Shown in pieces: positions 5,679 through 26,069 of a stretch of 28,341 nt of DNA. The DNA is from Acidobacteriota bacterium. Its GTDB lineage: Bacteria; Acidobacteriota; Blastocatellia; Pyrinomonadales; Pyrinomonadaceae. The position numbers and the translations under genes were made by a program. The notes beneath the pieces were generated by a model. That model searched no databases. It was not told the origin of the DNA and saw only the letters and a list, made by a program, of their open reading frames with translations. The stretch spans positions 1-28,341 of the forward strand of contig JAYVJN010000599.1 in NCBI GenBank assembly GCA_043769325.1. Reading direction: 5' to 3'. How positions within the stretch are numbered: the stretch's first letter is position 1; the number at the start of each line of letters is the position of its first letter.

Positions 5679-5702
5679 AGTGGACAGTGGGCAGTGGGCA
5701 GT
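5679..5702. repeat. Heptamer tandem repeat (AGTGGRC)x3
   Basis: AGTGGAC-AGTGGGC-AGTGGGC-AGT immediately upstream of the tyrS SD. Confidence 0.7.
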
Positions 5703-5860: not shown

Positions 5861-5939
5861 ACTGTCCCTTGTCAACTATCACTTGTCCACTGGTTTTCTA
5901 TAAAAATAGTTGACAAGTGACAGTTGACACTGAACAGTT
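5861..5939. repeat. Inverted repeat of degenerate CTTGTCA/TGACAGT heptamers
   Basis: ACTGTCCCTTGTCAACTAT (5861-5879) pairs 18/19 with ATAGTTGACAAGTGACAGT (5906-5924). Further degenerate heptamers lie inside the loop and out to 5939. Confidence 0.7.
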
Positions 5940-6014
5940 ACACGCTTCGCGTTGCGCTGGTCAAGAGTTTTGCGGTTTCAACCCTTGATTCACATATTGT
6001 ATAGTGTGCGGGCT

Positions 6015-10415: not shown

Positions 10416-10627
10416 CTTAAACCGCGCGAATGGCAGCAAAATAAAGGAACTTGTGCGGCGGTTCGTGAACATCTAAAGCGGATATTGCGCGCTGCCAACG
10501 ACGGTAACATGAGGCCCTAACTTTTTCGACTTATTGCGGGCTTGGCGCGTCAGTATGTTACGCTGTAAACGGCGGAAAGATTTCTCTTTAAAATTATTTT
10601 TACCTGGAAAAGTGACGAAACAGGCTG

Positions 10628-13258
10628 ATGGCCGGAAACCAAACGCGGGTTGAGACCGCAGCAAATTTGTCGGCGGCAGTGTTTGAGCCATCCCTTGACG
10701 CGCCGCGTCCGCGTGTGCGCGGCAAATTCCTGTTTGTCGGCGAGGAGAAATTCTACCTGCGCGGCGTCACTTACGGCACTTTTGGCCCGGATGCAACGAG
10801 CGCGGAATACGACCCCGCGCAAACTGAACGTGATTTCGCGCAGATGGCCGCCGAGGGCCTCAATGCCGTGCGGACTTACACCGTGCCGCCGCTTTGGTTG
10901 CTGGATGCGGCGCAACGTCACGGTTTGCGCGTGATGGCCGGTCTGCCCTGGGAACAGCACCTGGCGTTTTTGGATGAACCGGAACGCGCGCGTGGCATCG
11001 TGGAAAAAGTGCGCGCCGGCGTGCGGGTCTGCGCCAGGCATCCGGCGGTTTTGTGTTACGCCATCGGCAACGAGATTCCCGCGTCCGTCGTGCGCTGGCA
11101 CGGAGCCCGGCGGGTAGAGAATTTTCTGCGCCGGCTGTACCGCGCCGCCAAAGCCGAAGACCCCAAGGGCTTGGTCACTTACGTCAACTATCCTTCGACT
11201 GAATACCTCAATCTCGCGTTTGCCGATTTCCTTTGTTTCAACGTCTATCTCGAAGCCGAAGAACAGTTTACGGCTTACCTGGCGCGGCTGCAAAACATCG
11301 CCGGCGAGCGGCCTTTGGTCTTGGCCGAAATCGGTCTGGACAGCCAACGCAACGGCGCGCAAGTGCAGGCCATGACACTGGCCTGGCAATTGCGGGCGGC
11401 GTTTGGCGCGGGTTGCGCCGGCGCGTTCGTCTTTGCCTGGACGGACGAATGGCATCGCGGCGGCCACGACATCGCGGATTGGGATTTTGGTTTGACCACG
11501 CGCCAACGCGCAGCGAAACCCGCCTTAGCTGCCGTAAGCCAAGCCTTTGCCGCAGTTCCGTTTGCGGCGCGGGAATGGCCGCGCGTCTCCGTCGTGGTTT
11601 GTACCTACAACGGCGCGCGCACGATTCGGGATTGCCTGGACGGGCTGCGCGGGCTGGCTTACCCCAATTTTGAGGTCATCGTAGTCAACGACGGCTCAAC
11701 CGACGCCACGCCGGACATCGTGCGCGCATACCCCGAATTTTGCCTCATCAATACCGCCAATCGCGGCCTGAGCGCGGCGCGCAACACGGGTTACGAGGCC
11801 GCGACGGGCGAACTTGTGGCCTATACAGACGACGACGCGCACCCCGACCCGCATTGGCTAACCTATCTGGCGGCTACATTTATGGAGACGACGCACGCGG
11901 GCGTGGGCGGCCCCAACATCGCTCCGCGCGGCGATGGCCCCATCGCTGAATGTGTGGCTAACGCGCCCGGCGGCCCGGTTCACGTTCTCTTGTCGGACAC
12001 CGCCGCCGAACACATTCCGGGCTGCAACATGGCTTTTCGCCGTCGCGTTTTACTGAAATTGGGCGGCTTTGACGCGCAATTTCGCGCAGCCGGCGACGAC
12101 GTGGATTTTTGCTGGCGCGTCTTGGAGAGCGGCGGGACGCTCGGTTTTAGTCCGGCGGCAATGGTCTGGCATCACCGGCGCAATTCGGCGCGGATGTATT
12201 GGCGGCAGCAGCGCGGCTATGGCAAAGCCGAAGCCCTGCTCGAAGCCAAATGGCCGGAAAAATATAACGCCGCCGGGCATTTGACCTGGGGCGGGCGGCT
12301 TTACGGCAAGGGTTTGCTGGAAGCCTGGCGGTTGCGGCGCGGACGGATTTACCAGGGCACCTGGGGCGCGGCCTTGTTTCAATCGGTCTATCAGCCGGCG
12401 GCGGGCCTCTGGCGTTCGCTGCCTTTGATGCCGGAATGGTGGCTCTTGATTGGCGCGTTGGCGGCATTGGCGGCGTTGGGTTTGCGCTGGAAGCCTCTGT
12501 TGTTAGCGTTGCCGTTGTTGGGTTTAGCGGTTGGCGCGGCAGTGGCGCAAGCCGTTGCGGGCGGCGTCCGGGCCAAGTTTCAAATCGTGCCGGCGTCGCG
12601 CGCAGAAGACCTCAAACTGCGCGCCTTGACCGCTTTGCTCCATTTTATCCAACCCTTGGCGCGGCTGCGCGGACGCATTGAGCATGGCCTTAGCCTGTGG
12701 CGCAACCGGAGCGCGGCGGGACTGGTCTGGCCGCGTCCGTTCAAGGCCGCGCTGTGGAGCGAAAACTGGCGCGAACCGGCGGAATGGCTGCGCTCGTTGG
12801 ACAAAAATCTGCGCGCGGGCGGCACAGTGACACAACACGGCGGAGATTTCGACGCCTGGGATTTAGAGGCGCGCGGCGGTTTGCTGGGGCGCGTGCGGCT
12901 GCTGGCGGTGGCCGAAGAACACGGCGCGGGGCGTCAATTGGTGCGCGTGCGGGCCTGGTTGAAGGTGACGACGCTGGCCGTCGGCCTGGCCTCCGTGTTT
13001 GGCTTGCTGGGTCTGCTGGCCTTGCTCGACAAGACGCCGGCCATAGCGACGGCCCTTTTGACGATTACCTTTTTGCTGGTCTTGCGCGTGGTTTACGAAA
13101 CATCGCTTGGCATCGCCGCCGCCCGCGCCGCCGTCAATGAATTAGCCCAAGAAAGCGGCGTCACGGCGTTGGGCAAGACCCTCGGCGCAAGCCGCGTCTT
13201 AATCCCGAAAGTCTTGCCGGAATTAGCTTTAGCGGGGGAAGGCGATGAAGAGCAGTAG
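10628..13258 (+). CDS. Fusion: GH-A clan (GH2-like) TIM-barrel + GT2 glycosyltransferase + C-terminal membrane helices
   Basis: N-terminal half has LNAVRTY, YAIGNE (acid/base), AEIG (nucleophile) and FAWTDEW. From ~11576: VSVVVCTYN, VNDGSTD, YTDDD (DxD), GCNMAF, GDDVD and RQQRGY. Hydrophobic helices near 12440-12560 and 12970-13100. Confidence 0.88.
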   Translation: MAGNQTRVETAANLSAAVFEPSLDAPRPRVRGKFLFVGEEKFYLRGVTYGTFGPDATSAEYDPAQTERDFAQMAAEGLNAVRTYTVPPLWLLDAAQRHGLRVMAGLPWEQHLAFLDEPERARGIVEKVRAGVRVCARHPAVLCYAIGNEIPASVVRWHGARRVENFLRRLYRAAKAEDPKGLVTYVNYPSTEYLNLAFADFLCFNVYLEAEEQFTAYLARLQNIAGERPLVLAEIGLDSQRNGAQVQAMTLAWQLRAAFGAGCAGAFVFAWTDEWHRGGHDIADWDFGLTTRQRAAKPALAAVSQAFAAVPFAAREWPRVSVVVCTYNGARTIRDCLDGLRGLAYPNFEVIVVNDGSTDATPDIVRAYPEFCLINTANRGLSAARNTGYEAATGELVAYTDDDAHPDPHWLTYLAATFMETTHAGVGGPNIAPRGDGPIAECVANAPGGPVHVLLSDTAAEHIPGCNMAFRRRVLLKLGGFDAQFRAAGDDVDFCWRVLESGGTLGFSPAAMVWHHRRNSARMYWRQQRGYGKAEALLEAKWPEKYNAAGHLTWGGRLYGKGLLEAWRLRRGRIYQGTWGAALFQSVYQPAAGLWRSLPLMPEWWLLIGALAALAALGLRWKPLLLALPLLGLAVGAAVAQAVAGGVRAKFQIVPASRAEDLKLRALTALLHFIQPLARLRGRIEHGLSLWRNRSAAGLVWPRPFKAALWSENWREPAEWLRSLDKNLRAGGTVTQHGGDFDAWDLEARGGLLGRVRLLAVAEEHGAGRQLVRVRAWLKVTTLAVGLASVFGLLGLLALLDKTPAIATALLTITFLLVLRVVYETSLGIAAARAAVNELAQESGVTALGKTLGASRVLIPKVLPELALAGEGDEEQ

Positions 13259-16028
13259 AAGTGGAAAGTGGGGAGTGGGGAGTGGGGAGTGGGGCCGCGC
13301 CGTGTTAGTGGCGTTGCTTTTAGCCGCTTGCGCGACGATGGCCGCCGCGCAATGGGTTTGCGATATTCGCGGCACGGTTTCCGACCCCAATGGGGCGCGT
13401 ATTCCCAACGCAACGGTGCGTCTAACCGACAGAGAAGGCGTTTCCCGTTATGTCACAACTGACGCCGAAGGTAATTATATTTTTTTCTGCCGGATGTCGG
13501 GCCAATATACGATAACCGCCGAAGCCGAAGGGTTTAATATTGCCAAAGGGCAAGTCGAAGCAAGATTAAATAATTCCATAACATTTGATTTCACGCTTCA
13601 AGTAAAGATAGTTATTACCGACCCGGAAGCGGTTGTGGCTGAACAAAACGACCTGGCGGTTGTCACGCTGTCCGGCTATAAGTTGAAAGCCTTGCCGTCC
13701 GACCCACGCCAGTTATTGTTGCGTTTGAAGCGTTTAGCCGGCGCGACGGGGCCGGGCGCGGAGCTTGCCGTCTATGTGGACGGTGTGCGCGAGACGGGCA
13801 AATTGCCGCCCAAAGATTCCATCCAAAGCATCCGCATCAGCCGCGATTCATTCGCCGCCGAATTTAGCGAACCGGGCCAGGGCCGCGCCCTCATTTTCAC
13901 CAAACCAGCCGCCGAAGATTGGCACGGCGACCTTGAATTCAACTTCAACGACGAGACCCTCAACGCCCGTAACCCGTTTGCGCTCAATCGCCCGTCGGAA
14001 CAGGCGCGGGATTACAGCGCGGCTTTCGGCGGGCCTTTCGTGAAAAACCGTTGGGGCTTTTTCGCCGCTTTCAACCGCCGCGCGCAGGAGGAAAACTCCA
14101 TCATCAACGCCGTCACGCTCAACCCTCTGACGTTCGCCGCGCAGCCTTTCGCCGCCACTTTCAGCCATCCGGCGGGCAGCAAAGATTTTTCTTTCCGCAC
14201 CAATTACCTCTTGCGCGAGAGCCAAACGCTTGATTTTCGTTACCGTTACAGTTCCGGCGCGGAAAATAACCAGGGCCTCGACGACGGCTTTTCATTGCCT
14301 TCGCGGGCCTTTCGCCGCGCCGCGCGAGAGGACACATTCCGCGTCTCGTTGGTTTCCGTGCTGTCCGAACGCGCGGTCAATGAAGCGTTTATTGAATTGG
14401 GCCGGCGGCGCGCGGCAGCGCAGGCCGCCGACACAACGCCGGGCCTCGAAGTTTTGGACACCTTCACCGGCGGCGGTAATCCGGGCGCATTGGATTCAAC
14501 TGAATTAGCGCGTAACTTCCTCGTACAAAACTATTTCACCCTGACACGCGGCAACCACACGCTGAAACTCGGCGGCAACACTGCGGCCACCCAATACCGC
14601 AGCACTGACCGCGCTAACTTCAATGGTTCATTCACTTTCGGCACGGATTTGCTGCGCGACGCGCGGGGTTTGCCGCGTTTAGTGGACGGGGCTTTCGTCG
14701 TCATTTCGCCGTTGGAGCGTTACGCCAACACGGTGCAACGCTTGACGGGCTACCGCGCCGCGCAATTTACCATCCACACGGGCGACCCTTTCGTTGGTTT
14801 AACGCAATGGGAAAGTGGCTTTTTCGGGCAGGGCGATTGGCAGCTAAAACCCCGCGTGACGGTATCTTACGGGCTGCGCGCGGAATTGCAGACGCACTTG
14901 CCGGACAAACTCAACGCCGCGCCGCGCCTGTCTTTGGCGGCGCAACCGTTCAAGGGCCGCGACGCCGTTTTGCGCCTGGGCACAGGGCTCTTTTACGAGC
15001 GTTTCGCGCCTGAACTGACCATTGAAACCAATCGTTTCGACGGGGTGCGCCAACGCGATTTGCTCATCCAACGGCCCGGCTTTTTCGCCGTCATCCCGCC
15101 GGCTTTCAACCCCGCGCTCACGCAATTGACGCTCCACACCAAAGCGGCGGGCCTCAACGCGCCTTACGCCTGGCTTTCCACCGTGAGTTACGAACAGCCT
15201 TTGCCGCGTGGCCTAAATGCTTCCGTCAGTTATAGTTTCCAGCGCGGCATTCACCTTTTGCGGACGCGCAACACGAACGCGCCCGTGAGTGGCACGCGCC
15301 CGAATCTGGACTTAGGCCCGGTTTTGCAATATGAAGCGACGGGCCGCTCGCGCCGCCACGAATTCAATGCCGCGCTGAACGGCGAAATTAACGATAAATT
15401 CTCGTTTTACGGCAGTTACCGCCTCTCGTTGACCGACAGCGACACCGACGGCCCCTTCACCGCGCCGGCCAATTCCTACGATTTGCGCCGCGAATTTGGC
15501 CGCGCCGCCACCGACCAACGCCAGCAAATTTATTTCGAGAGCTATCTGTTGCTGCCGTTCGGTTTGAGCCTCTCACCCAACCTTTTCGCGGCTTCCGGCG
15601 CGCCTTTTGACATCACGACGGGCAACGACGACAATGGCGACAGCTTTTTTACAGACCGCCCGACGTTTGCCGCGCCGGGCACCGCCGGCGCGATTGCAAC
15701 GCCATATGGCCTTTTGAACCCGACGCCGGGCGCGGGCGAAACCATCATCCCGCGCAATTTCGGGCGCGGGCCGAGGCAAATCAGCCTGAACCTGAACGTC
15801 ACGCGGGAGTTCAGATTCGGCGCGGATAAACAGGACGCGCACGCACCGCGCCAGGGTGTTTTCTTGCGCCGCTCTTACGCCCTGACGCTGACGGCGGACT
15901 TTTCTAATCTGCTCAACCACACCAATTTCGGGGCCTTCAACGGCATTTTGAGCACGTCTCTCTTTGGCCGCCCTAACTACGCCGAAGATGCGCGGCGGAT
16001 AAACTTAGGCGTGACTTTAGGATTTTGA
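13245..16028 (+). CDS. TonB-dependent-receptor-like outer-membrane beta-barrel with N-terminal carboxypeptidase-regulatory-like domain
   Basis: Signal peptide, IRGTVSDPNGARIPNATV...TDAEGNY...EAEGF domain, plug-like LPPKDSIQSIRI..FAAEF, LNARNPF, APRLSLA and a C-terminal aromatic beta-signal (LGVTLGF). Confidence 0.85.
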   Translation: MKSSRSGKWGVGSGEWGRAVLVALLLAACATMAAAQWVCDIRGTVSDPNGARIPNATVRLTDREGVSRYVTTDAEGNYIFFCRMSGQYTITAEAEGFNIAKGQVEARLNNSITFDFTLQVKIVITDPEAVVAEQNDLAVVTLSGYKLKALPSDPRQLLLRLKRLAGATGPGAELAVYVDGVRETGKLPPKDSIQSIRISRDSFAAEFSEPGQGRALIFTKPAAEDWHGDLEFNFNDETLNARNPFALNRPSEQARDYSAAFGGPFVKNRWGFFAAFNRRAQEENSIINAVTLNPLTFAAQPFAATFSHPAGSKDFSFRTNYLLRESQTLDFRYRYSSGAENNQGLDDGFSLPSRAFRRAAREDTFRVSLVSVLSERAVNEAFIELGRRRAAAQAADTTPGLEVLDTFTGGGNPGALDSTELARNFLVQNYFTLTRGNHTLKLGGNTAATQYRSTDRANFNGSFTFGTDLLRDARGLPRLVDGAFVVISPLERYANTVQRLTGYRAAQFTIHTGDPFVGLTQWESGFFGQGDWQLKPRVTVSYGLRAELQTHLPDKLNAAPRLSLAAQPFKGRDAVLRLGTGLFYERFAPELTIETNRFDGVRQRDLLIQRPGFFAVIPPAFNPALTQLTLHTKAAGLNAPYAWLSTVSYEQPLPRGLNASVSYSFQRGIHLLRTRNTNAPVSGTRPNLDLGPVLQYEATGRSRRHEFNAALNGEINDKFSFYGSYRLSLTDSDTDGPFTAPANSYDLRREFGRAATDQRQQIYFESYLLLPFGLSLSPNLFAASGAPFDITTGNDDNGDSFFTDRPTFAAPGTAGAIATPYGLLNPTPGAGETIIPRNFGRGPRQISLNLNVTREFRFGADKQDAHAPRQGVFLRRSYALTLTADFSNLLNHTNFGAFNGILSTSLFGRPNYAEDARRINLGVTLGF
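13261..13294. repeat. (GTGGGGA)n heptamer repeat with four G4 tracts
   Basis: GTGGAAA-(GTGGGGA)x3-GTGGGG, with G4 runs at 13270, 13277, 13284 and 13291. Translated as GKWGVGSGEWG. Confidence 0.85.
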
Positions 16029-17836
16029 TGCCGGAAGTAAAATCACCAAACCGCGTTACTTTTTGGCCTTTGTCGCGCTGGCTGTTGGGTTATGCCTGGC
16101 CGTATCGCCGGCGGTTTGTGTTGTTTATTGTGCTGACGCTGGGCGAGATAATGTTGGGTTTGCTTGTGCCCTGGCCGATGAAAGTGTTGGTGGACAATGT
16201 TTTAGGCGGCGCGGTGTTACCGGCCTGGGCGCAAGTGGCGGCAGGCAAAGGCGCGTTACTGGCGGCGGTGTGCGGAGCCGGGCTGCTGCTTGGCGTTTTG
16301 AGTGAATTCATTTCGTTGGCGCACACGCAGTTACAGGTTGGTTTGGGGCAACGGATGTTGTTGCAAATGCAGCAGAATTTGTTCGCGCACCTGCAAAAAT
16401 TGTCTTTGCGTTACCACCAACAGAGCGGCACGGGAGACACGATTTACCGCATTGACAGCGACGCTTTTTGCGTGGACGCGATTTTGATGAGCGGCTTCTT
16501 CCCTCTAGCTAACTCATTGCTGACGTTGGGTTTGATGTTCCTTGTTCTGTTTCGCCTGGAGTGGTCGGTGGCCTTGTTGTCGCTGGCCGTCGTGCCGCTG
16601 CTGTTCGTGGTCATCCATCGTTATTCCGAGCGCATCACAGACCGCGCCGAACAGGTCAAAGAGATGGAATCGGGGCTTTACAACCTGGTGCACGAAGTCT
16701 TTTCGTCGGTCAAATTGGTCAAGGCGTTTGCGCGGGAACGCTACGAATTGAGCCGTTTCACGCGGCGTAGCGAAACGACGCTCAAGGAACGCCTGAGCTT
16801 GACCCTCCAAGAGTCGCTGTTATCGGTAACTATCACCTCGCTAACCTATTTAGGCACGGCGGCGGTGCTCTTTATGGGCGGCTGGCGCGTTCTGCAAGGG
16901 CGGTTGACGGTGGGCGAATTACTGGTCATTATCGCCTATTTGGGGGCGGTTTACGGGCCGCTTTCGGCCATCAGCCACACGCTGGGCGCGTTACAAGGTT
17001 CAATGGCCTCGGCGCGGCGCGTTTATGAAACGCTGCACGCCGAACCCGAAATTACCGACGCGCCCGACGCTCTGGACACGCCTATCTCCAACGGCGAGTT
17101 ATGTTTCGAGAACGTCAGCTTTGCTTACCAGGAAGCGCGGCCCGTCTTGCAAGACATCAGTTTTACCGTCAAACCAGGCCAGTTGGTGGCGTTGGTGGGT
17201 TTGACCGGGGCCGGTAAAACATCGCTGGTGAGCCTGATTCCGCGTTTTTACGAACCGACGGCGGGGCGCGTGCTGCTGGACGGCGTGGACGTGCGGCAGA
17301 GGTCTTTGCGGGCCTTGCGCGAAGGCGTCTCCATCGTGCTGCAAGAACCGATTTTGTTCTCGGCTACGGTTGCCGAAAACATCCGTTACGGGCGGCTGGA
17401 AGCGAGCGAAAAGGAGCTCCTGGCGGCGGCGCAAGCTGCTCAAGCGCATGAGTTTATCAGCGAGTTATCGGAAGGCTACGAGACTAAACTGGGCGAAGAC
17501 GGCGCGGGGCTTTCGGGCGGCGAAAGGCAGCGTTTGTCCATCGCGCGGGCCTTGCTCAAAGATGCGCCGGTGCTGATTTTGGACGAACCAACTTCGTCGC
17601 TTGACGCGCGGGCCGAAGCCAAGGTTTTCGCGGCTTTGCGGCGGTTGATGCAGGGCCGCACGACCCTCGTTATCGCTCATCGGCTCAGTACGATACGCGA
17701 CGCCGACAACATCATCGTGCTGGAACACGGGCGCATCGCCGGACAAGGCCGGCACGAGGAATTACTGGCAACCAACGCGCTCTATCGTGAGTTGTGTGAG
17801 CGTTTGTCGTTGGGTTTGGCGGTGGAATACGCATGA
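16028..17836 (+). CDS. ABC exporter, fused TMD-NBD (MsbA-like)
   Basis: N-terminal multi-helix TMD, Walker A GLTGAGKTS, Q-loop VLQEP, signature LSGGERQR, Walker B ILDEPTSSLD and H-loop IAHRLST. ATG overlaps the upstream TGA (TGATG). Confidence 0.95.
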   Translation: MPEVKSPNRVTFWPLSRWLLGYAWPYRRRFVLFIVLTLGEIMLGLLVPWPMKVLVDNVLGGAVLPAWAQVAAGKGALLAAVCGAGLLLGVLSEFISLAHTQLQVGLGQRMLLQMQQNLFAHLQKLSLRYHQQSGTGDTIYRIDSDAFCVDAILMSGFFPLANSLLTLGLMFLVLFRLEWSVALLSLAVVPLLFVVIHRYSERITDRAEQVKEMESGLYNLVHEVFSSVKLVKAFARERYELSRFTRRSETTLKERLSLTLQESLLSVTITSLTYLGTAAVLFMGGWRVLQGRLTVGELLVIIAYLGAVYGPLSAISHTLGALQGSMASARRVYETLHAEPEITDAPDALDTPISNGELCFENVSFAYQEARPVLQDISFTVKPGQLVALVGLTGAGKTSLVSLIPRFYEPTAGRVLLDGVDVRQRSLRALREGVSIVLQEPILFSATVAENIRYGRLEASEKELLAAAQAAQAHEFISELSEGYETKLGEDGAGLSGGERQRLSIARALLKDAPVLILDEPTSSLDARAEAKVFAALRRLMQGRTTLVIAHRLSTIRDADNIIVLEHGRIAGQGRHEELLATNALYRELCERLSLGLAVEYA

Positions 17837-18987
17837 GCGCGGAGTTTTTCGACATTTTGCATTGCCCTTTTTGCGGTTGCCGCGTGGCGGTGCAGACAAT
17901 GGTTGACTCGCGCAATGCCATATTGTATTGCGAATGTTCGACTTATCCGATGGTTGACGGCGTTCCGGTCTTTCAGCACGACTACAAAGCCGAAGCCGCC
18001 ACCGAACATCTCGCCGCCGGCGACGCGGAGGCCGCGCTCTGCGCCATGCTGGATTTGGACGACGCTGCGCCGTTGCGCGAAGTTGACACTTACCGCGCCG
18101 GCCTCGCGCTGCTGGCTTCAGAGGATGAAGGGCCGTATTTTCTCAACCGCTTTGCCGACCCGACGTTTTTGGTCAGTGCGGCGGTGGCGCGTGGCTTGAG
18201 CGGCAAAGTGAAGAAAACACGCGCTTTAGATGTTTGCGGCGGTTCCGGGCATTTGACGCGCGCGCTGTGCCAAGAGGGTTTCGCCGAAGTTTTTCTGGCA
18301 GAAACGGATTACTGGAAACTGTGGCTGGCGCAGAAATTCATCGCGCCGCGCGTCTTGCCGGTTTGCTGCGACGCCAACAACCCTTTGCCATTTGCGCCGG
18401 AGAGTTTCGCGCTGGCGATCTGCTCCGATGCGTTTCATTACGTCTGGTCTAAACGCTTGCTGGCAGAAGAGATGCAGCGTTTGGCCGGTGTCGTTACGGT
18501 AACGCACACGCATAACAAACTGTGTGAAAATTTCTCTGCCGGCGAACCTTTGACACCGGACGGCTACCGTAATTTATTTGCCGCCCGGCCCGTGCGGATG
18601 TTTGGCGAGACAGCCTTTTTATCTGCGGTGATTGACGGCAAAGCGTTGGATTTCAGTGTTTTAGAGAACGATGAAGATTTGCGCCGCGAACCGTCTTTGA
18701 CTTTGGTGGCAAGCAGGCAAGGCCAGGTTTTCAGCGCGTGTGAACCTTTGGCGAACGGTCAGCTTGACGGCGTGTGGGCCTTGAATCCGCTTTATGAAGC
18801 GACGCCCGATGGCGAGCGCGTGCATTTGCGTCTGCGCTTTCCTTCAGCGGATTATGAGGCCGAGTATGCCATTTGTAAACGCTACCTGGCAGAGAGTTTA
18901 ACCGTAAGCGCGGCAGATTTGCGGCGCGGCGCAAGGGAATTGACGGAGCGGCGCGTGTTGCTTGATTTGCCGGAGAACTTTGGTTAA
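17833..18987 (+). CDS. Putative class I SAM-dependent methyltransferase with N-terminal Trm112-like Cys cluster
   Basis: CPFC...CEC..YPMVDGVPV, then motif I LDVCGGSGH and CCDANNPLPFAPESFALAIC. ATGA overlap with the ABC gene. Confidence 0.7.
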   Translation: MSAEFFDILHCPFCGCRVAVQTMVDSRNAILYCECSTYPMVDGVPVFQHDYKAEAATEHLAAGDAEAALCAMLDLDDAAPLREVDTYRAGLALLASEDEGPYFLNRFADPTFLVSAAVARGLSGKVKKTRALDVCGGSGHLTRALCQEGFAEVFLAETDYWKLWLAQKFIAPRVLPVCCDANNPLPFAPESFALAICSDAFHYVWSKRLLAEEMQRLAGVVTVTHTHNKLCENFSAGEPLTPDGYRNLFAARPVRMFGETAFLSAVIDGKALDFSVLENDEDLRREPSLTLVASRQGQVFSACEPLANGQLDGVWALNPLYEATPDGERVHLRLRFPSADYEAEYAICKRYLAESLTVSAADLRRGARELTERRVLLDLPENFG

Positions 18988-20108
18988 TGAGAATTGTTTT
19001 GGCGGGAATTATTGCGCGTTACCCGTTTGGCGGGGTAACTTGGTGTTCGTTGATGTATCTGTTGGGGTTACGCAAGTTAGGCCACGAGGTCTATTATCTC
19101 GAAGATACCGGCGAGTGTATCTATGACCCTGTGAAGAATGAGATTTCGCTGGATTCGTCTTTCGGCCTGAAATATATCCATAAATCGCTGGCGCAATATG
19201 GTTTAGGCGAAAATTGGTGCTTTGTGGATTACGCCGCGCAGCATTTCGGCAAGACCCGCGCGGAGCTAAAGGAAATCTGCGCGACGGCGGATTTGTTCAT
19301 CAATCTTTCGGGCGGCTGTTGGTTTTGGCGCGATGAGTACCAACGCATTCCGCGTAAAGTCTTTATTGACAGCGACCCGGCCTTTACACAGATGGCTTTG
19401 GCGAAACGCGAACAGTGGTATGTGGATTTCTTCGCCGGTTTTGACGCGCTTTTTACCTTTGGGCGCAACATCGGCGCGGACGATTGCACGATTCCGGCGA
19501 CGCCTTTCGCGTGGAAAACGACCTGGCAGCCCGTTACTTGCGACGATTGGGCGACAAACGAGACGCCGCGCGACGTTTTTTCCACCGTAATGACCTGGCG
19601 CAACGAGAGTTTTACCGACGCCGACGGCAATAAAGACAAGCAGTTTGTTCACTTTATGGACTTGCCGCAGCGCACTCCGCAACCTCTTGAGTTGGCCGTC
19701 AACGGGCCGCAGGATTTGTTGCGGGCGCACGGCTGGCGCACGGTTGACGGCATGGCGGTTTCGGATAACCTGAACAAATACCGCAGTTACCTGCAATCAG
19801 CAAAGGCTGAGTTTAGCGTGGCGAAACACGCTTACGTCGCCACGCGGAGCGGTTGGTTTAGTGACCGGAGCGAGTGTTACCTGGCGGCGGGGCGGCCCGT
19901 CGTGGTGCAAGAGACGGGCTTCGGAAAATATCTGCCGACGGGCGAAGGTCTCTTATCTTTCAACAACTTAGACGAAGCGGTTGAAGCCATCGGGCGCGTC
20001 AACGCCGCTTACGCCGCGCACAGCCGCCGCGCCCAAGAAATCGCCCGCGCCTATTTTGACGCCCGCGTTGTGTTGCCGAAATTACTGGCGGAGGCCGGAG
20101 TAGCATGA
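18987..20108 (+). CDS. Putative GT-B fold glycosyltransferase (unassigned family)
   Basis: Rossmann start MRIVLAG..GG..GLRKLGHEVYYLED. C-terminal WFSDRSECYLAAGRPVV and A..IARAYFDA resemble Glyco_trans_1-like acceptor/donor domains. TAATG overlap. Confidence 0.6.
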   Translation: MRIVLAGIIARYPFGGVTWCSLMYLLGLRKLGHEVYYLEDTGECIYDPVKNEISLDSSFGLKYIHKSLAQYGLGENWCFVDYAAQHFGKTRAELKEICATADLFINLSGGCWFWRDEYQRIPRKVFIDSDPAFTQMALAKREQWYVDFFAGFDALFTFGRNIGADDCTIPATPFAWKTTWQPVTCDDWATNETPRDVFSTVMTWRNESFTDADGNKDKQFVHFMDLPQRTPQPLELAVNGPQDLLRAHGWRTVDGMAVSDNLNKYRSYLQSAKAEFSVAKHAYVATRSGWFSDRSECYLAAGRPVVVQETGFGKYLPTGEGLLSFNNLDEAVEAIGRVNAAYAAHSRRAQEIARAYFDARVVLPKLLAEAGVA

Positions 20109-21127
20109 AAATCGCCCAGGTCGCGCCCGTCGCCACGACAATTCCGCCGCCGAAATCGGGTTCGGTGGAGTTGATGACTTCGCTTTTGACCGAAGGCTTA
20201 GTCGCGCGCGGCCACGACGTTACGCTCTTTGCCACCGGCGATTCGGTGACAAGTGCTAGACTGCACGCGGTTTACCCGCACGGCTACTGGCACGACGAGG
20301 ATTTGTGGCCCTGGGAATTTTGCGAGATGATGAACCTGGCGGCGGTTTGCGAACGCGCCCAAGAGTTTGACATCATCCATTATCAGGCGGCCTATTATCC
20401 GATGAGTCTGGCCTTTACGCGGCTCATCAAAACGCCGGTGGTGCAGACCGTCCATCATCAGCCGGATGAAAGCCAGATTCGTCTGTGGAAAGATTACCCC
20501 GAAGCCCCTTTCGTCTGCATCTCGCGCACGCAATACGACGCGATGGACGGCCTCAATCGTCTTGGCGTGGTCTATAACTGCGTGGATACGCAATCATTTA
20601 CGTTTTGCGATCAGCCGGCGGATTACCTGCTTTTTCTGGGACGATTCACCGCCGGCAAAGGTGTTTTGCAAGCCATCGAAGTAGCGCGGCGGGCGGGTAT
20701 GAAGTTGTTGCTGGCGGCTTCGGAAGATGATTATTACCGCGAATTTGTGCAAACGGAAGTAGATGGCGAACAAATCGTTTACGTCGGCGAAGTGGCGCAC
20801 GAAGAAAAGGACAAACTCTTGGGCGGCGCGCGCGCCCTGCTCTACCCGGTGCAGGAGGGCGAGCCGTTTGGTTTGGTCATGGTCGAGGCGATGGCGTGCG
20901 GCACGCCCGTCGTCGCGCTCAACAAAGGCGCGGTCAACGAAATTGTCCGCGATGGCGTCAACGGCTATCAGGTCAACGATTTAGGCGCGATGGCCGCAGT
21001 CTTGCCGCGCGCCTTCGCGCTTGACCGCGCCCGCGTTCGCCAAGACGCCGAAGCGCGTTTCGGTCTCAACCAAATGGTGGACGGTTATGTTAAAATGTAT
21101 CAAGAAGTGCTGAGGACTGAGTGCTGA
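20105..21127 (+). CDS. Glycosyltransferase family 4
   Basis: MKIAQVAP..PP, GHDVTLFA, FLGR..KG and EPFGLVMVEAMACGTPV. ATGA overlap. Confidence 0.92.
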   Translation: MKIAQVAPVATTIPPPKSGSVELMTSLLTEGLVARGHDVTLFATGDSVTSARLHAVYPHGYWHDEDLWPWEFCEMMNLAAVCERAQEFDIIHYQAAYYPMSLAFTRLIKTPVVQTVHHQPDESQIRLWKDYPEAPFVCISRTQYDAMDGLNRLGVVYNCVDTQSFTFCDQPADYLLFLGRFTAGKGVLQAIEVARRAGMKLLLAASEDDYYREFVQTEVDGEQIVYVGEVAHEEKDKLLGGARALLYPVQEGEPFGLVMVEAMACGTPVVALNKGAVNEIVRDGVNGYQVNDLGAMAAVLPRAFALDRARVRQDAEARFGLNQMVDGYVKMYQEVLRTEC

Positions 21128-21134
21128 GGACTGA
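21107..21134. repeat. Exact 14-bp tandem duplication at the GT4/deacetylase junction
   Basis: GTGCTGAGGACTGA x2 (21107-21120 and 21121-21134). The second copy carries both the GT4 TGA stop and the downstream GTG start. Confidence 0.8.
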
Positions 21135-21963
21135 GACTCCATCAATGCTGGCGATTTTCGCGCATCCCGACGACGAGACGGTGATGATGGGCGGGACGTT
21201 GGCGCGTTACGCGGCGGCGGGTGTGCGGGTGGCCTTGCTCTGCGCGACGCGGGGCGAATACGGGCCGATTAGCGATCCCGCGCTGGCGACGGAGGAAACT
21301 TTGCCGGCTGTGCGCGAAGCTGAATTGCGGGCCGCTTGTAAAGTTTTGGGCGTCGGTTGGCTGCGTTTCCTGGACTGTCCCGATAGCGGCGTCAATAATC
21401 TTTGGTGGCCGGAGGTGGAGGCCAAAATCGTGCGGGCGATTCGTGAACTAAAGCCGCAAGTAATTGTCACGTTTGGGCTTGATGGTTTGTATGGGCATCC
21501 CGACCATATCGCCGTGAGTATGCTGGCGCGGGCCGCATTTCGTTCGGCGGGGCAGGCCGAATGCTTTGCCGGCACGGGCGCACCGCATCAGGCGCAAAAG
21601 CTCTATTACGCGCAATTTCCTTACAGTCTGGCGCAAGATTTGCTGGAGTCTTTGCGAGTGGAAGCGGGCGCGGCAGATTTTTGGGGCTTTGACCCGGAGG
21701 CTTTCGGTGTGGCGGATGAGGAAATCACGGCCACGCTGGATGTCGCGGAATATGTGCCGGCCAAGTTGCGCGCGCTGCGTTGCCATCGCACGCAACTTGT
21801 GGCAAATAATGTCTTTGCCTTGATAAACGACGATTTAGCCGCGCGTTTGTGGGCGCGTGAGCATTTTCGTCTGGCTGATACCGTGGGGCCGGCTTCTGAC
21901 GCCGGGCCGGAGACGGATTTATTCGCGGGTTTATTCGTAAAACGACTACGACACGCTTACTAA
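21121..21963 (+). CDS. PIG-L/LmbE family N-acetyl-sugar deacetylase (MshB-like)
   Basis: FAHPDDET, CATRGE, REAELRAAC..LG, YGHPDHIA and K..ALRCHRTQ. GTG 21121 or in-frame ATG 21145 as start. Confidence 0.92.
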   Translation: MLRTETPSMLAIFAHPDDETVMMGGTLARYAAAGVRVALLCATRGEYGPISDPALATEETLPAVREAELRAACKVLGVGWLRFLDCPDSGVNNLWWPEVEAKIVRAIRELKPQVIVTFGLDGLYGHPDHIAVSMLARAAFRSAGQAECFAGTGAPHQAQKLYYAQFPYSLAQDLLESLRVEAGAADFWGFDPEAFGVADEEITATLDVAEYVPAKLRALRCHRTQLVANNVFALINDDLAARLWAREHFRLADTVGPASDAGPETDLFAGLFVKRLRHAY

Positions 21964-22003: not shown

Positions 22004-23566
22004 ATGTCGGTTAGAAGTTTTTTCAATGTGCGCCGCGCACTTTTGCTGTGCTTGTCTTTGGGCAGTTTGGCCGCGCTCTGTTTCACGCCGAAAAGCGACG
22101 GGGCGCAACAGCAACACGCACCATTGACTTTTTGCACCACGCCGAGTTTTAACGCGCCGGTTCCTTTTAGTGTGGGCCAGACGCCTCTGGGTTTGGACAC
22201 GGGCGACTTCAACAACGATGCCAAGCGCGATGTGGCGGTGGCTAACTTTACGTCTCACACCGTTTCCGTGCTGTTGGGCAACGGCGCGGGGAGTTTCACA
22301 TTGGGCGCGACGCTCAACACAGGCAACAATCCGGGCGCGTTGGTGGTCGCGGATTTCAATAATGACAGCCGGGCTGACATCGCCTCCGCCAATTCGGGTT
22401 CGGACACGGTTTCGGTCTTTTTGGGCAATGGCGCGGGCGCATTTGGCAATGCGCTGACGCTTTTTGTCGGGGCCAATCCGAGCGGTATCGCGGTGGGCGA
22501 CCTCAACGCCGATGGCCGCCGCGACATCGTGACCGCCAACGCCGACACCGACAATTTCACCTTGCTGACCGGCAACGGCAACGGCACTTTCGCCGCGCCG
22601 CGCAACGTAGCTGCCGGCTTCACCCCGCTTAATGTTGTAGTGGCAGATTTTAACGGCGACTCGCGGAGCGACGTGGGCATTGTCAATTTTGTCGCGGAAA
22701 GCGTCTCGCTGCATCTTGCGGTCGGCCCCGGCTTCTTTCCTGGCCCTGAATTATTCACCGGCACGGCCCCCAGCGACGCCGCCACTGCCGATTTTAACGG
22801 CGACGGGCGCGCCGATATTGTCACCGCCAACACGGGTTCGTTCGATATTTCGGTTTTTCTCCGCAACACCGGCGGCGGGCCGGGCGGCGGCTTTGCCGAC
22901 CCGGTGAATTACAATGTGGGCGAAAGTCCGAGCGCGTTGGCAACCGGCGATTTCAACGGCGACAACAAAACCGACATCGCGGTTGCCAATGGCGACACCA
23001 ACGATGTCTCGCTGCTCTTGGGTAACGGCAACGGCACTTTTCAGGCGGCAATCAATTTCCTCGCCGGCGCATCGCCAAGCGGCATTGCCGCCGCCGATTT
23101 CGATGGCGATGGCAACCTTGATTTTATCGTCGCCAACGCCGATACCAATACGGTTTCGCTCTTGCGTAATACCTGCGGCGCGCCCACGCCCACGCCCGGC
23201 CCGGTGTTAGTTACCGAAACCGGCTCTGACCGCGCCATCGCGTTGGCGTCGGTTTCTTTCCGGCGCGATCCCTTTCCGCTCACGGATTCCAATAACCTCA
23301 GCACCGATACGCGCGCCCGTATTATTCTATTCTCCAATAACATAACCGCCGCCGATGCCTCTTTGCTGACGGCCAAAGCCACTGACGCGCAAAACAACGA
23401 CTATGCCTTGGTTATCGAAGATGTGCGCGCCGTCCCTGATTTGCCGGGTTTTACGCAAATCACGGCGCGTTTGCCAGCCACGCTTGGCGCGGGCGATAAT
23501 GTGCTGGTGAGAATCACTCTGCGCGGCGTGCAAAGTAACGCGGCGCGGGTTTACATCACACCTTAG
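22004..23566 (+). CDS. Secreted FG-GAP/VCBS-repeat beta-propeller protein with PT linker and C-terminal beta domain
   Basis: Signal peptide, seven [GA]D[FL][ND]xDxxxD[IVF]xxxN repeats, a CGAPTPTPGP linker and a ~120-aa C-terminal domain ending SNAARVYITP. Confidence 0.9.
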   Translation: MSVRSFFNVRRALLLCLSLGSLAALCFTPKSDGAQQQHAPLTFCTTPSFNAPVPFSVGQTPLGLDTGDFNNDAKRDVAVANFTSHTVSVLLGNGAGSFTLGATLNTGNNPGALVVADFNNDSRADIASANSGSDTVSVFLGNGAGAFGNALTLFVGANPSGIAVGDLNADGRRDIVTANADTDNFTLLTGNGNGTFAAPRNVAAGFTPLNVVVADFNGDSRSDVGIVNFVAESVSLHLAVGPGFFPGPELFTGTAPSDAATADFNGDGRADIVTANTGSFDISVFLRNTGGGPGGGFADPVNYNVGESPSALATGDFNGDNKTDIAVANGDTNDVSLLLGNGNGTFQAAINFLAGASPSGIAAADFDGDGNLDFIVANADTNTVSLLRNTCGAPTPTPGPVLVTETGSDRAIALASVSFRRDPFPLTDSNNLSTDTRARIILFSNNITAADASLLTAKATDAQNNDYALVIEDVRAVPDLPGFTQITARLPATLGAGDNVLVRITLRGVQSNAARVYITP

Positions 23567-24267: not shown

Positions 24268-24858
24268 ATGAGCTTTAAGACAATTGAAGCTGTCGTAGAA
24301 AGTTGGTCAAACGAGGACGATACGCCCTGGCCATATATAGCCATATCCGGCTATATGAGCTTGAATCAAGCTCTAAATAACGAAAAAGTTGGCGCGATAG
24401 TACAACTTGCCTGCTCATATAATAGTCTGGAATTTCGCTCTAACACAGAAGATACATTACGCTCCTTTCTTGATCTGGACGGCTTTGTGTTACCTGGCGG
24501 GTTACGTTTCTCGGAAAGCGGTCAAGTTAAAGTTCTGCCGGGTTGCTGTTGCGGGTTGGAAAATTGGCGCGATTGGCTGCTAGTGTCGCCGGAACACTGC
24601 GCTATCTGGACAGGCCATGACCCGAGCCCCTGGGTTGAATACGTTGAGGGCCAAGTGAAAATCTGGCCGGATTCAGATAGCGCGCCAAGTACAGCAATCG
24701 CCTTTAGTTATGAAGAATTGACGCAACTGCTCAAGCAAGTTGAGTCCGATTTGCAAGGCTTTCTTGTGCGCTTGGGCCAATGGGCAGAACATATTGCGCC
24801 GAGCTTAAAAGGTGAAATTGTGTCATATTTTGCCCAGCATCTGCACATTCCGGTATGA
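24268..24858 (+). CDS. Hypothetical protein with PGCCCGLENW and GHDP motifs
   Basis: 196-aa ORF of visibly lower GC than its neighbours. ATGA overlap with the next gene supports translation. Confidence 0.75.
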   Translation: MSFKTIEAVVESWSNEDDTPWPYIAISGYMSLNQALNNEKVGAIVQLACSYNSLEFRSNTEDTLRSFLDLDGFVLPGGLRFSESGQVKVLPGCCCGLENWRDWLLVSPEHCAIWTGHDPSPWVEYVEGQVKIWPDSDSAPSTAIAFSYEELTQLLKQVESDLQGFLVRLGQWAEHIAPSLKGEIVSYFAQHLHIPV

Positions 24859-26069
24859 TTGCGTTTATCCGGCAAAAATGGAAAAAGATTGCGCTGGCCT
24901 TGCTGTTGTTGGCGGTGCTGACGCAGATTCCCTTTATTTACCGGCGTTGGCAATTGTCGCGGCTACACGCGGCGATTGAGCGAGTAAACGCAGGACGTGT
25001 TGCGCCGGATGAATCCGTTTACAAAGATTATTGGGGCGTACTGCACGTTCACTCAAACCTCGGCGGGCACAGCGACGGCAAACTAACGGACATCGCTAAA
25101 GCCGCGCAAGCCAACGGTTTAGCTTTCGTAATAATGACCGAACACCCCTCGCGTGAGGTCAATACGGTGGATTTTACCTTGCGCGGAGTACAGGGCGGCG
25201 TGCTGTTCGTTAATGGCAACGAGGTCGTGACGAGTGAGCGCGAACGCTTCCTCGCCTTGCCGGGCCACGAATCCGCCTTGACGGCAGACACGTTGGCAAC
25301 CGCGGAAGCCTTACGCCAGACAAACGCGCGGGAAGCCTTTTCAATAGCGGCTTATCCCGAAGAATGGCAACACTTAGACGCGGGCGGTTACGACGGCCTG
25401 GAAATTTATAACCTTTATACCAACGCCCGCCAAGCCAATCCGGTAACACTCTTTTTCGACGCGCTGTGGGCCGGTTATCCTGAATTACTCTTTACCAGAT
25501 TTTACGCCCGGCCCGAGGCCAATTTGCAACGCTGGGACGTAGCGACGCGGCAACGTCGCATTGTCGCTGTGGCCGGCAACGACGCGCACCAGAATATTGG
25601 TTTTGGTCTCGCGGATGCGAGTGGACATCGCTTTGTCTATCTGCAACTTGACCCATATGAGCGCAGTTTTCGTCTCTTTCGCACTCACGTCTTGCTACCG
25701 GCGGGGCAACCTTTAACAACGGAGAGTTTACTCTCAGCATTGCGGCAAGGCCATTGTTTTACGGGTTTTGATGTCTTGGGCGAGACTTCCGGCTTTCGCT
25801 TTACGGCGCACAACGGCGCGGAACAGAAGCTGATGGGTGACGAAATTACTTGGCGCGAGGGTGTTCGCTTGCGGGTGGCGTTGCCTGTTTCGGCGCGGGT
25901 GATTTTGTATAAGGACGGGCAAGCCGTTCAGGATGAACCGGCCATTTCGCAACAAGAATTTACGGTGCGGGAAAAAGGCGTCTATCGGGTGGAATGTTAT
26001 TTGCCGCAGTTGCCTGGCGCGGCGGGCGGGCTGCCCTGGATAATTAGTAATCCGATTTATGTGCGGTAA
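24855..26069 (+). CDS. PHP-domain metallohydrolase (CehA/McbA-like), N-terminally membrane anchored
   Basis: N-terminal TM helix, then LHVHS..GHSDG, MTEH, GNE, EIYN and GNDAH metal-binding motifs. Confidence 0.82.
   Translation: MIAFIRQKWKKIALALLLLAVLTQIPFIYRRWQLSRLHAAIERVNAGRVAPDESVYKDYWGVLHVHSNLGGHSDGKLTDIAKAAQANGLAFVIMTEHPSREVNTVDFTLRGVQGGVLFVNGNEVVTSERERFLALPGHESALTADTLATAEALRQTNAREAFSIAAYPEEWQHLDAGGYDGLEIYNLYTNARQANPVTLFFDALWAGYPELLFTRFYARPEANLQRWDVATRQRRIVAVAGNDAHQNIGFGLADASGHRFVYLQLDPYERSFRLFRTHVLLPAGQPLTTESLLSALRQGHCFTGFDVLGETSGFRFTAHNGAEQKLMGDEITWREGVRLRVALPVSARVILYKDGQAVQDEPAISQQEFTVREKGVYRVECYLPQLPGAAGGLPWIISNPIYVR

Follow-up and report, generated by a model that had tools for sequence, protein, structure and literature searches.

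Introduction

In the Nod pathway (NodC, NodB, NodA, NodS, NodU, NodH, NodL, and NodIJ), an oligosaccharide is made by a membrane glycosyltransferase of family GT2, tailored in the cytoplasm, and exported by an ATP-binding cassette (ABC) transporter. In NdvB of Bradyrhizobium and Pseudomonas, a GT2 domain is fused to a glycoside hydrolase (GH) domain of family GH17, and the hydrolase domain is thought to transglycosylate and cyclize the nascent beta-1,3-glucan (PMC10237404). The cyclic beta-1,2-glucan of Cgs (ChvB/NdvB) is synthesized in the cytoplasm and exported to the periplasm by the ABC transporter Cgt/ChvA/NdvA (PMC10901819). Here, these systems are compared with a run of seven genes (g1 to g7) on a contig of 28,341 nucleotides (JAYVJN010000599.1; this whole stretch is called the window) from an Acidobacteriota bacterium of the family Pyrinomonadaceae. 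The genes encode a synthase in which a GH domain is fused to a GT2 domain and a membrane part, an outer-membrane barrel, an ABC exporter, a methyltransferase, two further glycosyltransferases, and a deacetylase.

A sequence-only reading of the window had proposed that this run encodes a compact pathway for the synthesis, tailoring, and export of a glycan. The conserved synteny reported below supports that proposal, in which the product and its export are predicted from the encoded proteins. We consider it probable, at about 0.6, that the seven genes, and probably an eighth, form one operon that would be the Pyrinomonadaceae/Blastocatellia version of a widespread, uncharacterized glycan pathway. 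The core of the pathway consists of a membrane-anchored GH-A/GT2 synthase, an ABCB-type half-transporter, and at least one copy of a GT-B-fold glycosyltransferase, here called GTx, and the window holds all three in one co-directional block. The accessories present here are a GT4 glycosyltransferase with a PIG-L deacetylase, a Trm112-type methyltransferase, an Oar-like barrel, and a secreted beta-propeller. New in this work are the seven-family acidobacterial variant with its shuffled gene order, GTx as a GT-B core enzyme, the GT4 and PIG-L module in three phyla, and the repeated recruitment of an Oar-like barrel and a secreted propeller.

Results

Conservation of the synthase and its neighbors

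Homologs of g1 were sought among 5.8 billion proteins, and 8000 of the 8000 best candidates scored; the best 120 are 61-79% identical to g1, and those that are named belong to the Acidobacteriota, Chloroflexota, Tectomicrobia, and Gemmatimonadota. With one genome per GTDB species, 590 of 599 matches to the g1 pattern were confirmed. The best 80 of these come from at least 14 phyla and nearly all from soil or sediment metagenome-assembled genomes (MAGs), identity across these phyla is 50-70% in the family, and the cluster is present in the species genomes of monoderms too. The distribution is patchy: of 301 Acidobacteriota genomes sampled, 15 carry the fusion gene, and 2 of 24 genomes sampled from the host family also do. 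A plasmid collection held no full-length homolog of g1, the sole match there being a GT2 domain in Nonomuraea. Phyla are intermingled in the g1 tree (26 label changes, where 14 would be the minimum), although no clear compositional signal of a recent horizontal transfer into this genome was found: the GC content at third codon positions (GC3) is 0.63-0.73 in the operon genes, g1 alone being slightly higher, and 0.64-0.68 in the flanking genes, so that the ranges overlap.

To describe the neighborhood of the fusion gene, the seven window proteins were compared with 81 loci, and counts were made for the 51 loci whose downstream sequence measures 8 kb or more. The ABC exporter is encoded in 42 of the 51 loci, and in 41 of the 51 it lies within 1.5 kb of the fusion gene; GTx is present in 43, with two or more copies in 21, and both families occur together in 37. 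Pairwise distances of g1 and the ABC exporter correlate modestly (Mantel r=0.35, p=0.001), and the co-evolution signal between g1 and GTx is weak (Mantel r=0.17), probably because it is blurred by paralogy. Furthermore, in an Actinomycetota MAG (locus L031, 9968-14290), a single frame of 1440 amino acids (aa) joins the GH barrel, GT2, transmembrane part, ABC membrane domain, and ABC ATPase, and this natural synthase-ABC fusion argues for a physical coupling of the two proteins. It is the only true fusion among the apparent long open reading frames (ORFs), since the long ABC-containing ORFs of several high-GC loci (for example 1445 aa in L067 and 1335 aa in L048) are out-of-frame extensions. 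Genes for a class IV aminotransferase, a UDP-N-acetylglucosamine (UDP-GlcNAc) 2-epimerase, and a GFO/IDH/MocA oxidoreductase lie downstream of the L031 fusion.

Recurrent co-occurrence across phyla, which the sequence-only reading had named as the mark of a conserved system, was borne out for the fusion gene with the ABC exporter and GTx, and the methyltransferase was seen beside it in acidobacterial contigs. The same families stand beside the fusion gene in many phyla, and the synteny is conserved rather than scattered. These counts also bear on whether unrelated envelope genes with overlapping ends have merely come to lie side by side: genes often overlap where bacterial genomes are compact, and barrels and ABC proteins belong to abundant families, but a chance juxtaposition is extremely unlikely given that the same families recur next to the fusion gene in varied order in different phyla and that a natural synthase-ABC fusion exists.

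The genes around this core vary and include extra GT2 genes, APH-fold kinases (of which a locus often has several), hexapeptide acyltransferases, sulfotransferases, YdjC or PIG-L deacetylases, and sugar epimerases, and a carbamoyltransferase is also found in relatives; these tailoring genes indicate that the product is decorated. Adjacent GT4 and PIG-L genes recur in Thermoleophilaceae, Solirubrobacteraceae, other Actinomycetes, Chloroflexota, Chloroflexia, and Acidobacteriota (loci L056, L063, L077, L083, L087, L040, L095, L100, L101, and L102). In the closest genomic relative, G015 (locus L013, contig C33, 2081-17245, minus strand), the synthase is 68% and GTx 38% identical to the window proteins, and the block contains no ABC exporter or barrel; it encodes two paralogous proteins of ~328 aa that are unknowns, a PHA_gran_rgn-sulfotransferase fusion, a GNAT-like protein, a ketoacyl synthase, a hexapeptide transferase, a 580-aa GT4, and a NodU/CmcH-type carbamoyltransferase.

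The acidobacterial variant

Among the 81 loci, the barrel was found in three only (L015, L077, and L081) and the methyltransferase g4 in none. Because these two families were rare or missing there, the closest metagenomic homologs of GTx and the methyltransferase were followed to further contigs. All seven families recur in other acidobacterial contigs, and their order is shuffled. L095, and likewise L077, carries GH-GT2, barrel, ABC, GTx, GT4, PIG-L, and an FG-GAP protein; L096 and L097 carry GH-GT2, barrel, ABC, GTx, GT4, and a 667-aa protein without a Pfam match that resembles the FG-GAP protein. The order in L100 is barrel, NHL propeller, GH-GT2, ABC, methyltransferase, GTx, GT4, and PIG-L, and that in L101 is UDP-glucose dehydrogenase, epimerase, GH-GT2, ABC, methyltransferase, GTx, GTx, TylF methyltransferase, GT4, PIG-L, and barrel. 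L102 carries a GH-GT2 protein fused to NHL repeats, followed by ABC, GTx, GT4, PIG-L, and methyltransferase.

The barrel gene lies between the synthase and ABC genes in the window, L077, L095, and L096. In the g1 tree, the window falls into a well-supported clade with L013 (G015), L095, L096, L077, and L015, and the barrel adjoins the synthase in every member of this clade except L013. Altogether, only three genes make up the pan-phylum core, which the seven-family set elaborates in a lineage-specific way and with variable order.

Structure of the proposed operon

The source contig (C599) belongs to a MAG of 601 contigs with a completeness of 82%. Seven plus-strand ORFs span 10628-21963 (Table 1), and the overlaps that had been reported at all six of their junctions were reproduced from the sequence, as were the domain assignments of all seven genes (Pfam/NCBIfam); the overlap of g6 and g7 depends on a GTG start at 21121. 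The g1/g2 junction overlaps by 14 nt, and the g2/g3 junction (TGATG) by 1 nt if g3 starts at ATG 16028 or by 4 nt if it starts at TTG 16025. The next three junctions read ATGA (g3/g4), TAATG (g4/g5), and ATGA (g5/g6), and g6 and g7 overlap by 7 nt with GTG 21121. This last junction sits in a perfect 14-nt tandem duplication (21106-21135, 2.1 copies) that repeats the C-terminal g6 codons at the N-terminus of g7, yielding the overlapping GTG start, so the start may be an artefact; ATG 21145, which leaves a 17-nt gap after g6, is an equally good start because the PIG-L domain begins at residue 10. Elsewhere in the window, adjacent co-directional genes are separated by 15-213 nt, which makes the run of six overlaps distinctive. 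Terminator-like sites show no excess in the window (31, against 30.2 in shuffled sequence), and the leader contains no sigma-70-like site in a promoter scan and no riboswitch or other Rfam family at E<=0.1.

Table 1. Positions of the operon genes and adjoining features in the window, with the basis of each assignment in parentheses.
Feature	Positions	Strand	Description
Leader	10416..10627	+	212-nt intergenic stretch 5' of the operon
g1	10628..13258	+	876-aa synthase: GH-A barrel, GT2, and transmembrane part (Pfam, alignment, AlphaFold2)
g2	13245..16028	+	927-aa Oar/TonB-dependent-receptor-like outer-membrane barrel (Pfam)
g3	16025/16028..17836	+	ABCB-type (type IV) half-transporter, ABC_membrane (PF00664) and ABC_tran fused (Pfam)
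g4	17833..18987	+	384 aa, Trm112-like Cys4 zinc ribbon and class I S-adenosylmethionine (SAM) methyltransferase (Pfam Methyltransf_25/11)
g5 (GTx)	18987..20108	+	373-aa GT-B-fold glycosyltransferase (AlphaFold2 model)
g6	20105..21127	+	340-aa GT4, E-x7-E motif intact (Pfam, NCBIfam)
g7	21121..21963	+	280-aa PIG-L/LmbE-family de-N-acetylase, alternative start ATG 21145
Probable eighth gene	22004..23566	+	520-aa secreted FG-GAP beta-propeller, 40 nt past g7 (Pfam)

The synthase and the exporter

By Pfam, g1 has a TIM barrel like that of Glyco_hydro_2_C and a GT2 domain, and its C-terminal part is hydrophobic. The (beta/alpha)8 barrel of clan GH-A occupies aa ~25-312 and GT2 aa ~313-550, and the C-terminal part (aa ~600-845) comprises about four transmembrane helices with a cytoplasmic beta-rich insert of ~90 aa. 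Because there is no signal peptide and no transmembrane helix between them, the GH and GT2 parts are placed in the cytoplasm, and with four transmembrane helices the C-terminus is placed there too. Alignment of 39 g1 homologs, read together with the AlphaFold2 model (m36bfdeda9707, pLDDT 75), showed that N148-E149 after beta4 and E234 on beta7 are invariant; these are the acid/base and nucleophile positions of clan GH-A, and their invariance argues for selection on a hydrolase or transglycosylase site. In the same alignment, D355, D401/D403, and G489-D490-D491-V492-D493 of GT2 are invariant, its DxD and GDD motifs included, and at the position of the QxxRW motif the proteins have QQxGY, of which Q527, Q528, Y531, and G532 are invariant. 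Structural comparison of the barrel (Foldseek, VIA) revealed folds like GH157, GH2, GH5, GH72, and GH158 (Z 24-29), with no GH17 structure among the top 50 matches, and a fold search showed that residues 289-692 resemble MftF, AglE, PgaC/IcaA, monoglucosyl-diacylglycerol synthase, and NodC.

The best NCBIfam models for g3 are MsbA_rel and MsbA, and glucan-exporter models are also close (PRK13657 at 384 bits with a cut-off of 733, TIGR01192 at 300 with a cut-off of 585); all scores fall below the cut-offs. Matches in the PDB are TM287/288, Sav1866, and MsbA.

The tailoring enzymes

The motifs CPFCG..CEC and GGSG (motif I) are visible in the sequence of g4. Its family yielded 995 scored matches, those listed being mostly 41-49% identical, and the JGI name for its relatives is 'YbaR (Trm112 family)/SAM-dependent methyltransferase'. 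For g5, Pfam gave only a weak match to Glyco_trans_1_2, and the family is essentially without a Pfam model; the AlphaFold2 model (ma76232fb2f06, pLDDT 95) has a GT-B fold, and its nearest folds are the GT4-type retaining enzymes ManT (7qsg), PimA, BshA, and MshA (TM-score ~0.6, 9-17% identity). According to NCBIfam, g6 weakly resembles GlcNAc-phosphatidylglycerol synthase. The deacetylase g7 matches Pfam at E=1e-35, its AHPDDE and HPDH zinc motifs are intact, and its nearest models are MshB (165 bits, cut-off 224) and Mca (157, cut-off 277). None of g1, g4, g5, g6, and g7 has a signal peptide, and g2 and the FG-GAP protein each have one.

The top PDB fold for GTx, the methylmannose-polysaccharide mannosyltransferase ManT (7qsg), raises the alternative that the product stays in the cytoplasm as a methylated oligo- or polysaccharide like mycobacterial methylmannose polysaccharide (MMP) or MGLP, with the ABC protein carrying some other substrate. 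The tailoring enzymes are all cytoplasmic, and the MMP cluster likewise combines a glycosyltransferase, methyltransferases, and a hydrolase. We consider this very unlikely, however, as the ABC exporter is the most constant neighbor of the synthase and is sometimes fused to it, the methyltransferase is missing from most clusters, and the likeness to ManT is generic to the GT-B fold (TM-score ~0.6, 15% identity).

Several traits of these proteins would also suit a lipid-anchored pathway in place of a soluble one, in which the chain is built on polyprenyl phosphate, a glycerolipid, or a phosphatidylinositol-like lipid and flipped by the MsbA/PglK-like ABC protein to become a surface-exposed lipoglycan or glycolipid; in one variant, GT4 and PIG-L would make a glucosamine (GlcN)-lipid, as PIG-A/PIG-L do for glycosylphosphatidylinositol. 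The exporter scores best against MsbA models and resembles MsbA structures, but it is equally close to a model of a soluble-glucan exporter (384 bits). The likeness of g6 to GlcNAc-phosphatidylglycerol synthase is weak, and GT4 and PIG-L are present in a minority of clusters and so cannot make a general anchor. GTx fold neighbors include the lipid-acceptor enzymes PimA and monoglucosyl-diacylglycerol synthase, the layout of GT2 with four transmembrane helices recalls DPMS/GtrB-type polyprenyl-phosphate glycosyltransferases (match to 5mlz), and a membrane-anchored product makes sense in the monoderms that carry the cluster; on the other side, no priming phosphoglycosyltransferase of WbaP/WecA type, GT-C, or ligase is found among the recurrent neighbors, and a cytoplasmic endo-acting GH fits a lipid-linked intermediate less easily. 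Taken together, a lipid-anchored product appears somewhat unlikely, and synthesis and export of a glycan by the synthase and ABC transporter is preferred.

The barrel and the secreted propeller

The g2 protein consists of a signal peptide, an N-terminal CarboxypepD_reg domain, and an OMP_b-brl_4 barrel, the domain layout of Oar-like TonB-dependent transporters; the orthologs in L096 and L100 also match PF00593. No match to the Plug domain (PF07715) was obtained for g2 even at E<=10, a level at which HMMER filters may hide weak matches. Its nearest Atlas clusters are acidobacterial and named 'TonB-dependent receptor' and 'Oar protein family'. Orthologs of g2 adjoin the fusion gene in L015, L077, L081, L095, L096, L100, and L101, and these cluster-linked barrels are 43-50% identical to g2. 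The genome holds about 15 paralogs (35 matches), of which the nearest (G000:C98:1835-4429) is 37% identical over 847 aa. At 13267-13294, within the 5' end of g2, the heptamer AGTGGGG is repeated four times and codes for part of the n-region of the signal peptide.

Because the cluster-linked barrels are closer to g2 than its paralogs are, and because the linkage recurs in Blastocatellia, a dedicated role of some kind is argued for the barrel. That role could be import, with the barrel taking the secreted molecule or a loaded form of it back up, as in siderophore loci, or taking up an unrelated nutrient. Import is the established role of TonB-dependent transporters, the g2 family is large in this genome and across the Acidobacteriota, the barrel gene is variously placed between synthase and ABC, upstream, or at the cluster end, and clusters of other diderm phyla have no barrel; the missing Plug match and the closer relationship among cluster-linked barrels speak against it. 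A further point against it is Oar of Myxococcus xanthus, a TonB-dependent transporter that is needed for secretion of the protease PopC (PMC6434023). Like g2, Oar combines CarboxypepD_reg with a large barrel and provides a precedent for outward transport in the class, but its substrate is a protein, and the two are likened by domain type, not by orthology. We regard an importing barrel as a real possibility that falls short of probable, and import or another role is rated somewhat above export of the glycan.

The FG-GAP gene downstream of g7 is probably the eighth member of the operon. Its product has a signal-peptide-like N-terminus, and a homolog occupies the same position in L077, L095, and L096. 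In L100 an NHL propeller holds an analogous place as a separate gene that precedes the synthase gene, and in L102 (1138-4956) the synthase is a 1272-aa variant in which NHL repeats are fused after the membrane part. An FG-GAP or NHL propeller is found with the cluster in six acidobacterial loci, and one may speculate that it binds or processes the exported glycan.

Other features of the window

A gene for an S9 peptidase lies directly upstream of the synthase gene in the window; the same position is taken by a large HAMP-PAS hybrid sensor histidine kinase in L095 (1-2031) and by a large CHASE2-type sensor histidine kinase in L096 (1-1817). More heptamer arrays are located at 5679-5702, 5908-5943, and 6031-6062. 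On the minus strand, 7896-7951 matches the small RNA Acido-Lenti-1 of Rfam below threshold (27.9 bits, with the gathering score at 37; E=0.011) over the full model length. Downstream of the operon, an overlapping pair of genes at 24268-26069 (plus strand) encodes a 196-aa protein without a Pfam match and a weakly PHP-like 404-aa protein in a stretch that is lower in GC (GC3 0.47-0.60), and a gene for the protein adenylyltransferase SelO is found at 26641-28140 (minus strand).

Discussion

GT2 enzymes invert and give beta-linkages, and clan GH-A enzymes retain and act on beta-glycosides, so the two fused domains of g1 plausibly make and cut the same bond. The GT2 and transmembrane part has the fold of enzymes whose products are short, defined oligomers or polymers assembled at the membrane (MftF, NodC, and PgaC). 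In the proposed mechanism, the inverting GT2 would make a short beta-linked chain at the cytoplasmic face, and the fused, retaining GH-A domain would cut or transglycosylate this chain to a defined length, as is thought for the GH17 domain of NdvB. GTx and GT4 would attach alpha-linked branches, and PIG-L would turn a GlcNAc residue into GlcN; the standard route to a GlcN residue runs via GlcNAc and takes a GT4 enzyme and then a zinc deacetylase of the PIG-L family. The methyltransferase would methylate the product, and in relatives cytoplasmic kinases and sulfo-, carbamoyl-, and acetyltransferases would decorate it. The ABC exporter, probably docked on the synthase, would carry the product across the inner membrane, and more speculatively the barrel may let it through the outer membrane or take it back up.

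Several observations weigh against or limit this reading. The ABC gene is missing in 9 of the 51 well-covered loci, including that of the closest genomic relative, G015, and a complex prediction of two copies of the ABC membrane domain with aa 590-850 of the synthase scored 0.00, which speaks neither for nor against binding. The processivity of g1 is not assured, as QQxGY replaces the canonical QxxRW, and in the structural comparison its GH domain fits no single CAZy family and cannot be assigned a substrate. The linkage of the methyltransferase was seen in three contigs (L100-L102) that had been picked as GTx carriers, and it shows recurrence, not frequency. Homologous clusters in other diderm phyla have no barrel, which is therefore an add-on that is inessential to the core. 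Finally, the sequencing runs that hold the locus are sediment-metagenome DNA only, with no RNA runs among them.

A bolder form of the proposal would make the synthase and ABCB exporter a distinct, general route of glycan secretion in at least 14 phyla. An oligosaccharide sized by the hydrolase and tailored in the cytoplasm would pass straight from the synthase to an exporter that is docked on it or, in some species, fused to it, and in Blastocatellia a dedicated glycan-exporting barrel would complete the route. This we judge unlikely; were it true, the barrel would be the first glycan-exporting member of the Oar-type TonB-like class. In any case, with an Oar-like barrel recurrently linked to the cluster, TonB-type export can be tested directly on a substrate other than a protein. 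The fused hydrolase-transferase provides a model of cytoplasmic chain-length control that is open to test, and the natural synthase-exporter fusion lends itself to structural studies. Hundreds of soil and sediment species carry the fusion gene, which is highly conserved across Actinomycetota, Chloroflexota, Acidobacteriota, and Pseudomonadota; the pathway probably makes abundant secreted or surface glycans or signaling oligosaccharides in soils, and such glycans could bear on aggregation, desiccation tolerance, and cell-cell or plant signaling.

The sequence-only reading had named no characterized pathway of this composition, and none was matched in NCBIfam, solved structures, or the literature. 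None of the seven operon proteins reached an NCBIfam equivalog cut-off, and no characterized member was found through family models, solved structures, or the literature. The 'promonan' pathway of Sphingomonas was considered and is Wzy-dependent and unrelated. In the tested ORFs of the 28-kb window there is no Pfam family of Wzx, Wzy, Wzz/Wzc, or Wza, in agreement with the earlier statement that the hallmarks of Wzx/Wzy systems are lacking, and no ABC-2 type permease with a separate ATPase (Wzm/Wzt, KpsMT); g3 is a fused ABC_membrane and ABC_tran half-transporter, and classical Wzm/Wzt export was correctly set aside. The reported lack of nucleotide-sugar genes held for the tested ORFs of the window but not for relatives, as L101 carries UDP-glucose dehydrogenase and epimerase genes and L031 a UDP-GlcNAc 2-epimerase gene. 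The window contains no PilZ, PgaB, PgaA, BcsB, or BcsC family, and, unlike synthase-dependent exopolysaccharide systems (BcsA, PgaC, Alg8), g1 has QQxGY in place of QxxRW, while the fold of its GT2 and transmembrane part resembles PgaC/IcaA.

The order of g6 and g7, a GT4 enzyme followed by a PIG-L deacetylase, is that of MshA/MshB, BshA/BshB, and PIG-A/PIG-L. Unlike in the thiol pathways, however, the scores stay below the cut-offs (BshA 52 against 274 and MshA 34 against 462, besides those of MshB and Mca given above), no MshC-like ligase or MshD-like acetyltransferase is encoded in the window, and the pair is embedded in a glycan cluster.

As in NdvB, GT2 and a cytoplasmic domain of clan GH-A are parts of one membrane protein; in contrast to NdvB, the GH part of g1 is N-terminal and is not GH17 (no Glyco_hydro_17 match in Pfam), and a dedicated ABC exporter and GT-B enzymes are constant neighbors. 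The Cgs system shares with this locus a multi-domain membrane synthase with glycosyltransferase and GH-like modules and an ABCB-type half-transporter, but the modules are GT84 and GH94 there and GT2 and a GH2_C-like GH-A domain here, g3 scores below the equivalog cut-offs of ChvA/NdvA, and the clusters described here carry many tailoring enzymes. With the Nod pathway, g1-family clusters share all of the classes of modification, namely deacetylation, methylation, carbamoylation, sulfation, and acetylation, and NodC is among the matches of the GT2 and transmembrane part of g1, at the level of fold only. They differ from it in that NodC has no fused GH, the deacetylases are PIG-L/YdjC rather than the NodB of carbohydrate esterase family 4 (CE4), no CE4 or NodA family is present in the window, and the exporter is of ABCB type rather than the ABC-2 type of NodIJ. 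Altogether, while the defining features of neither are present, the overall logic of this system is closest to that of Nod-factor and cyclic-glucan biosynthesis.

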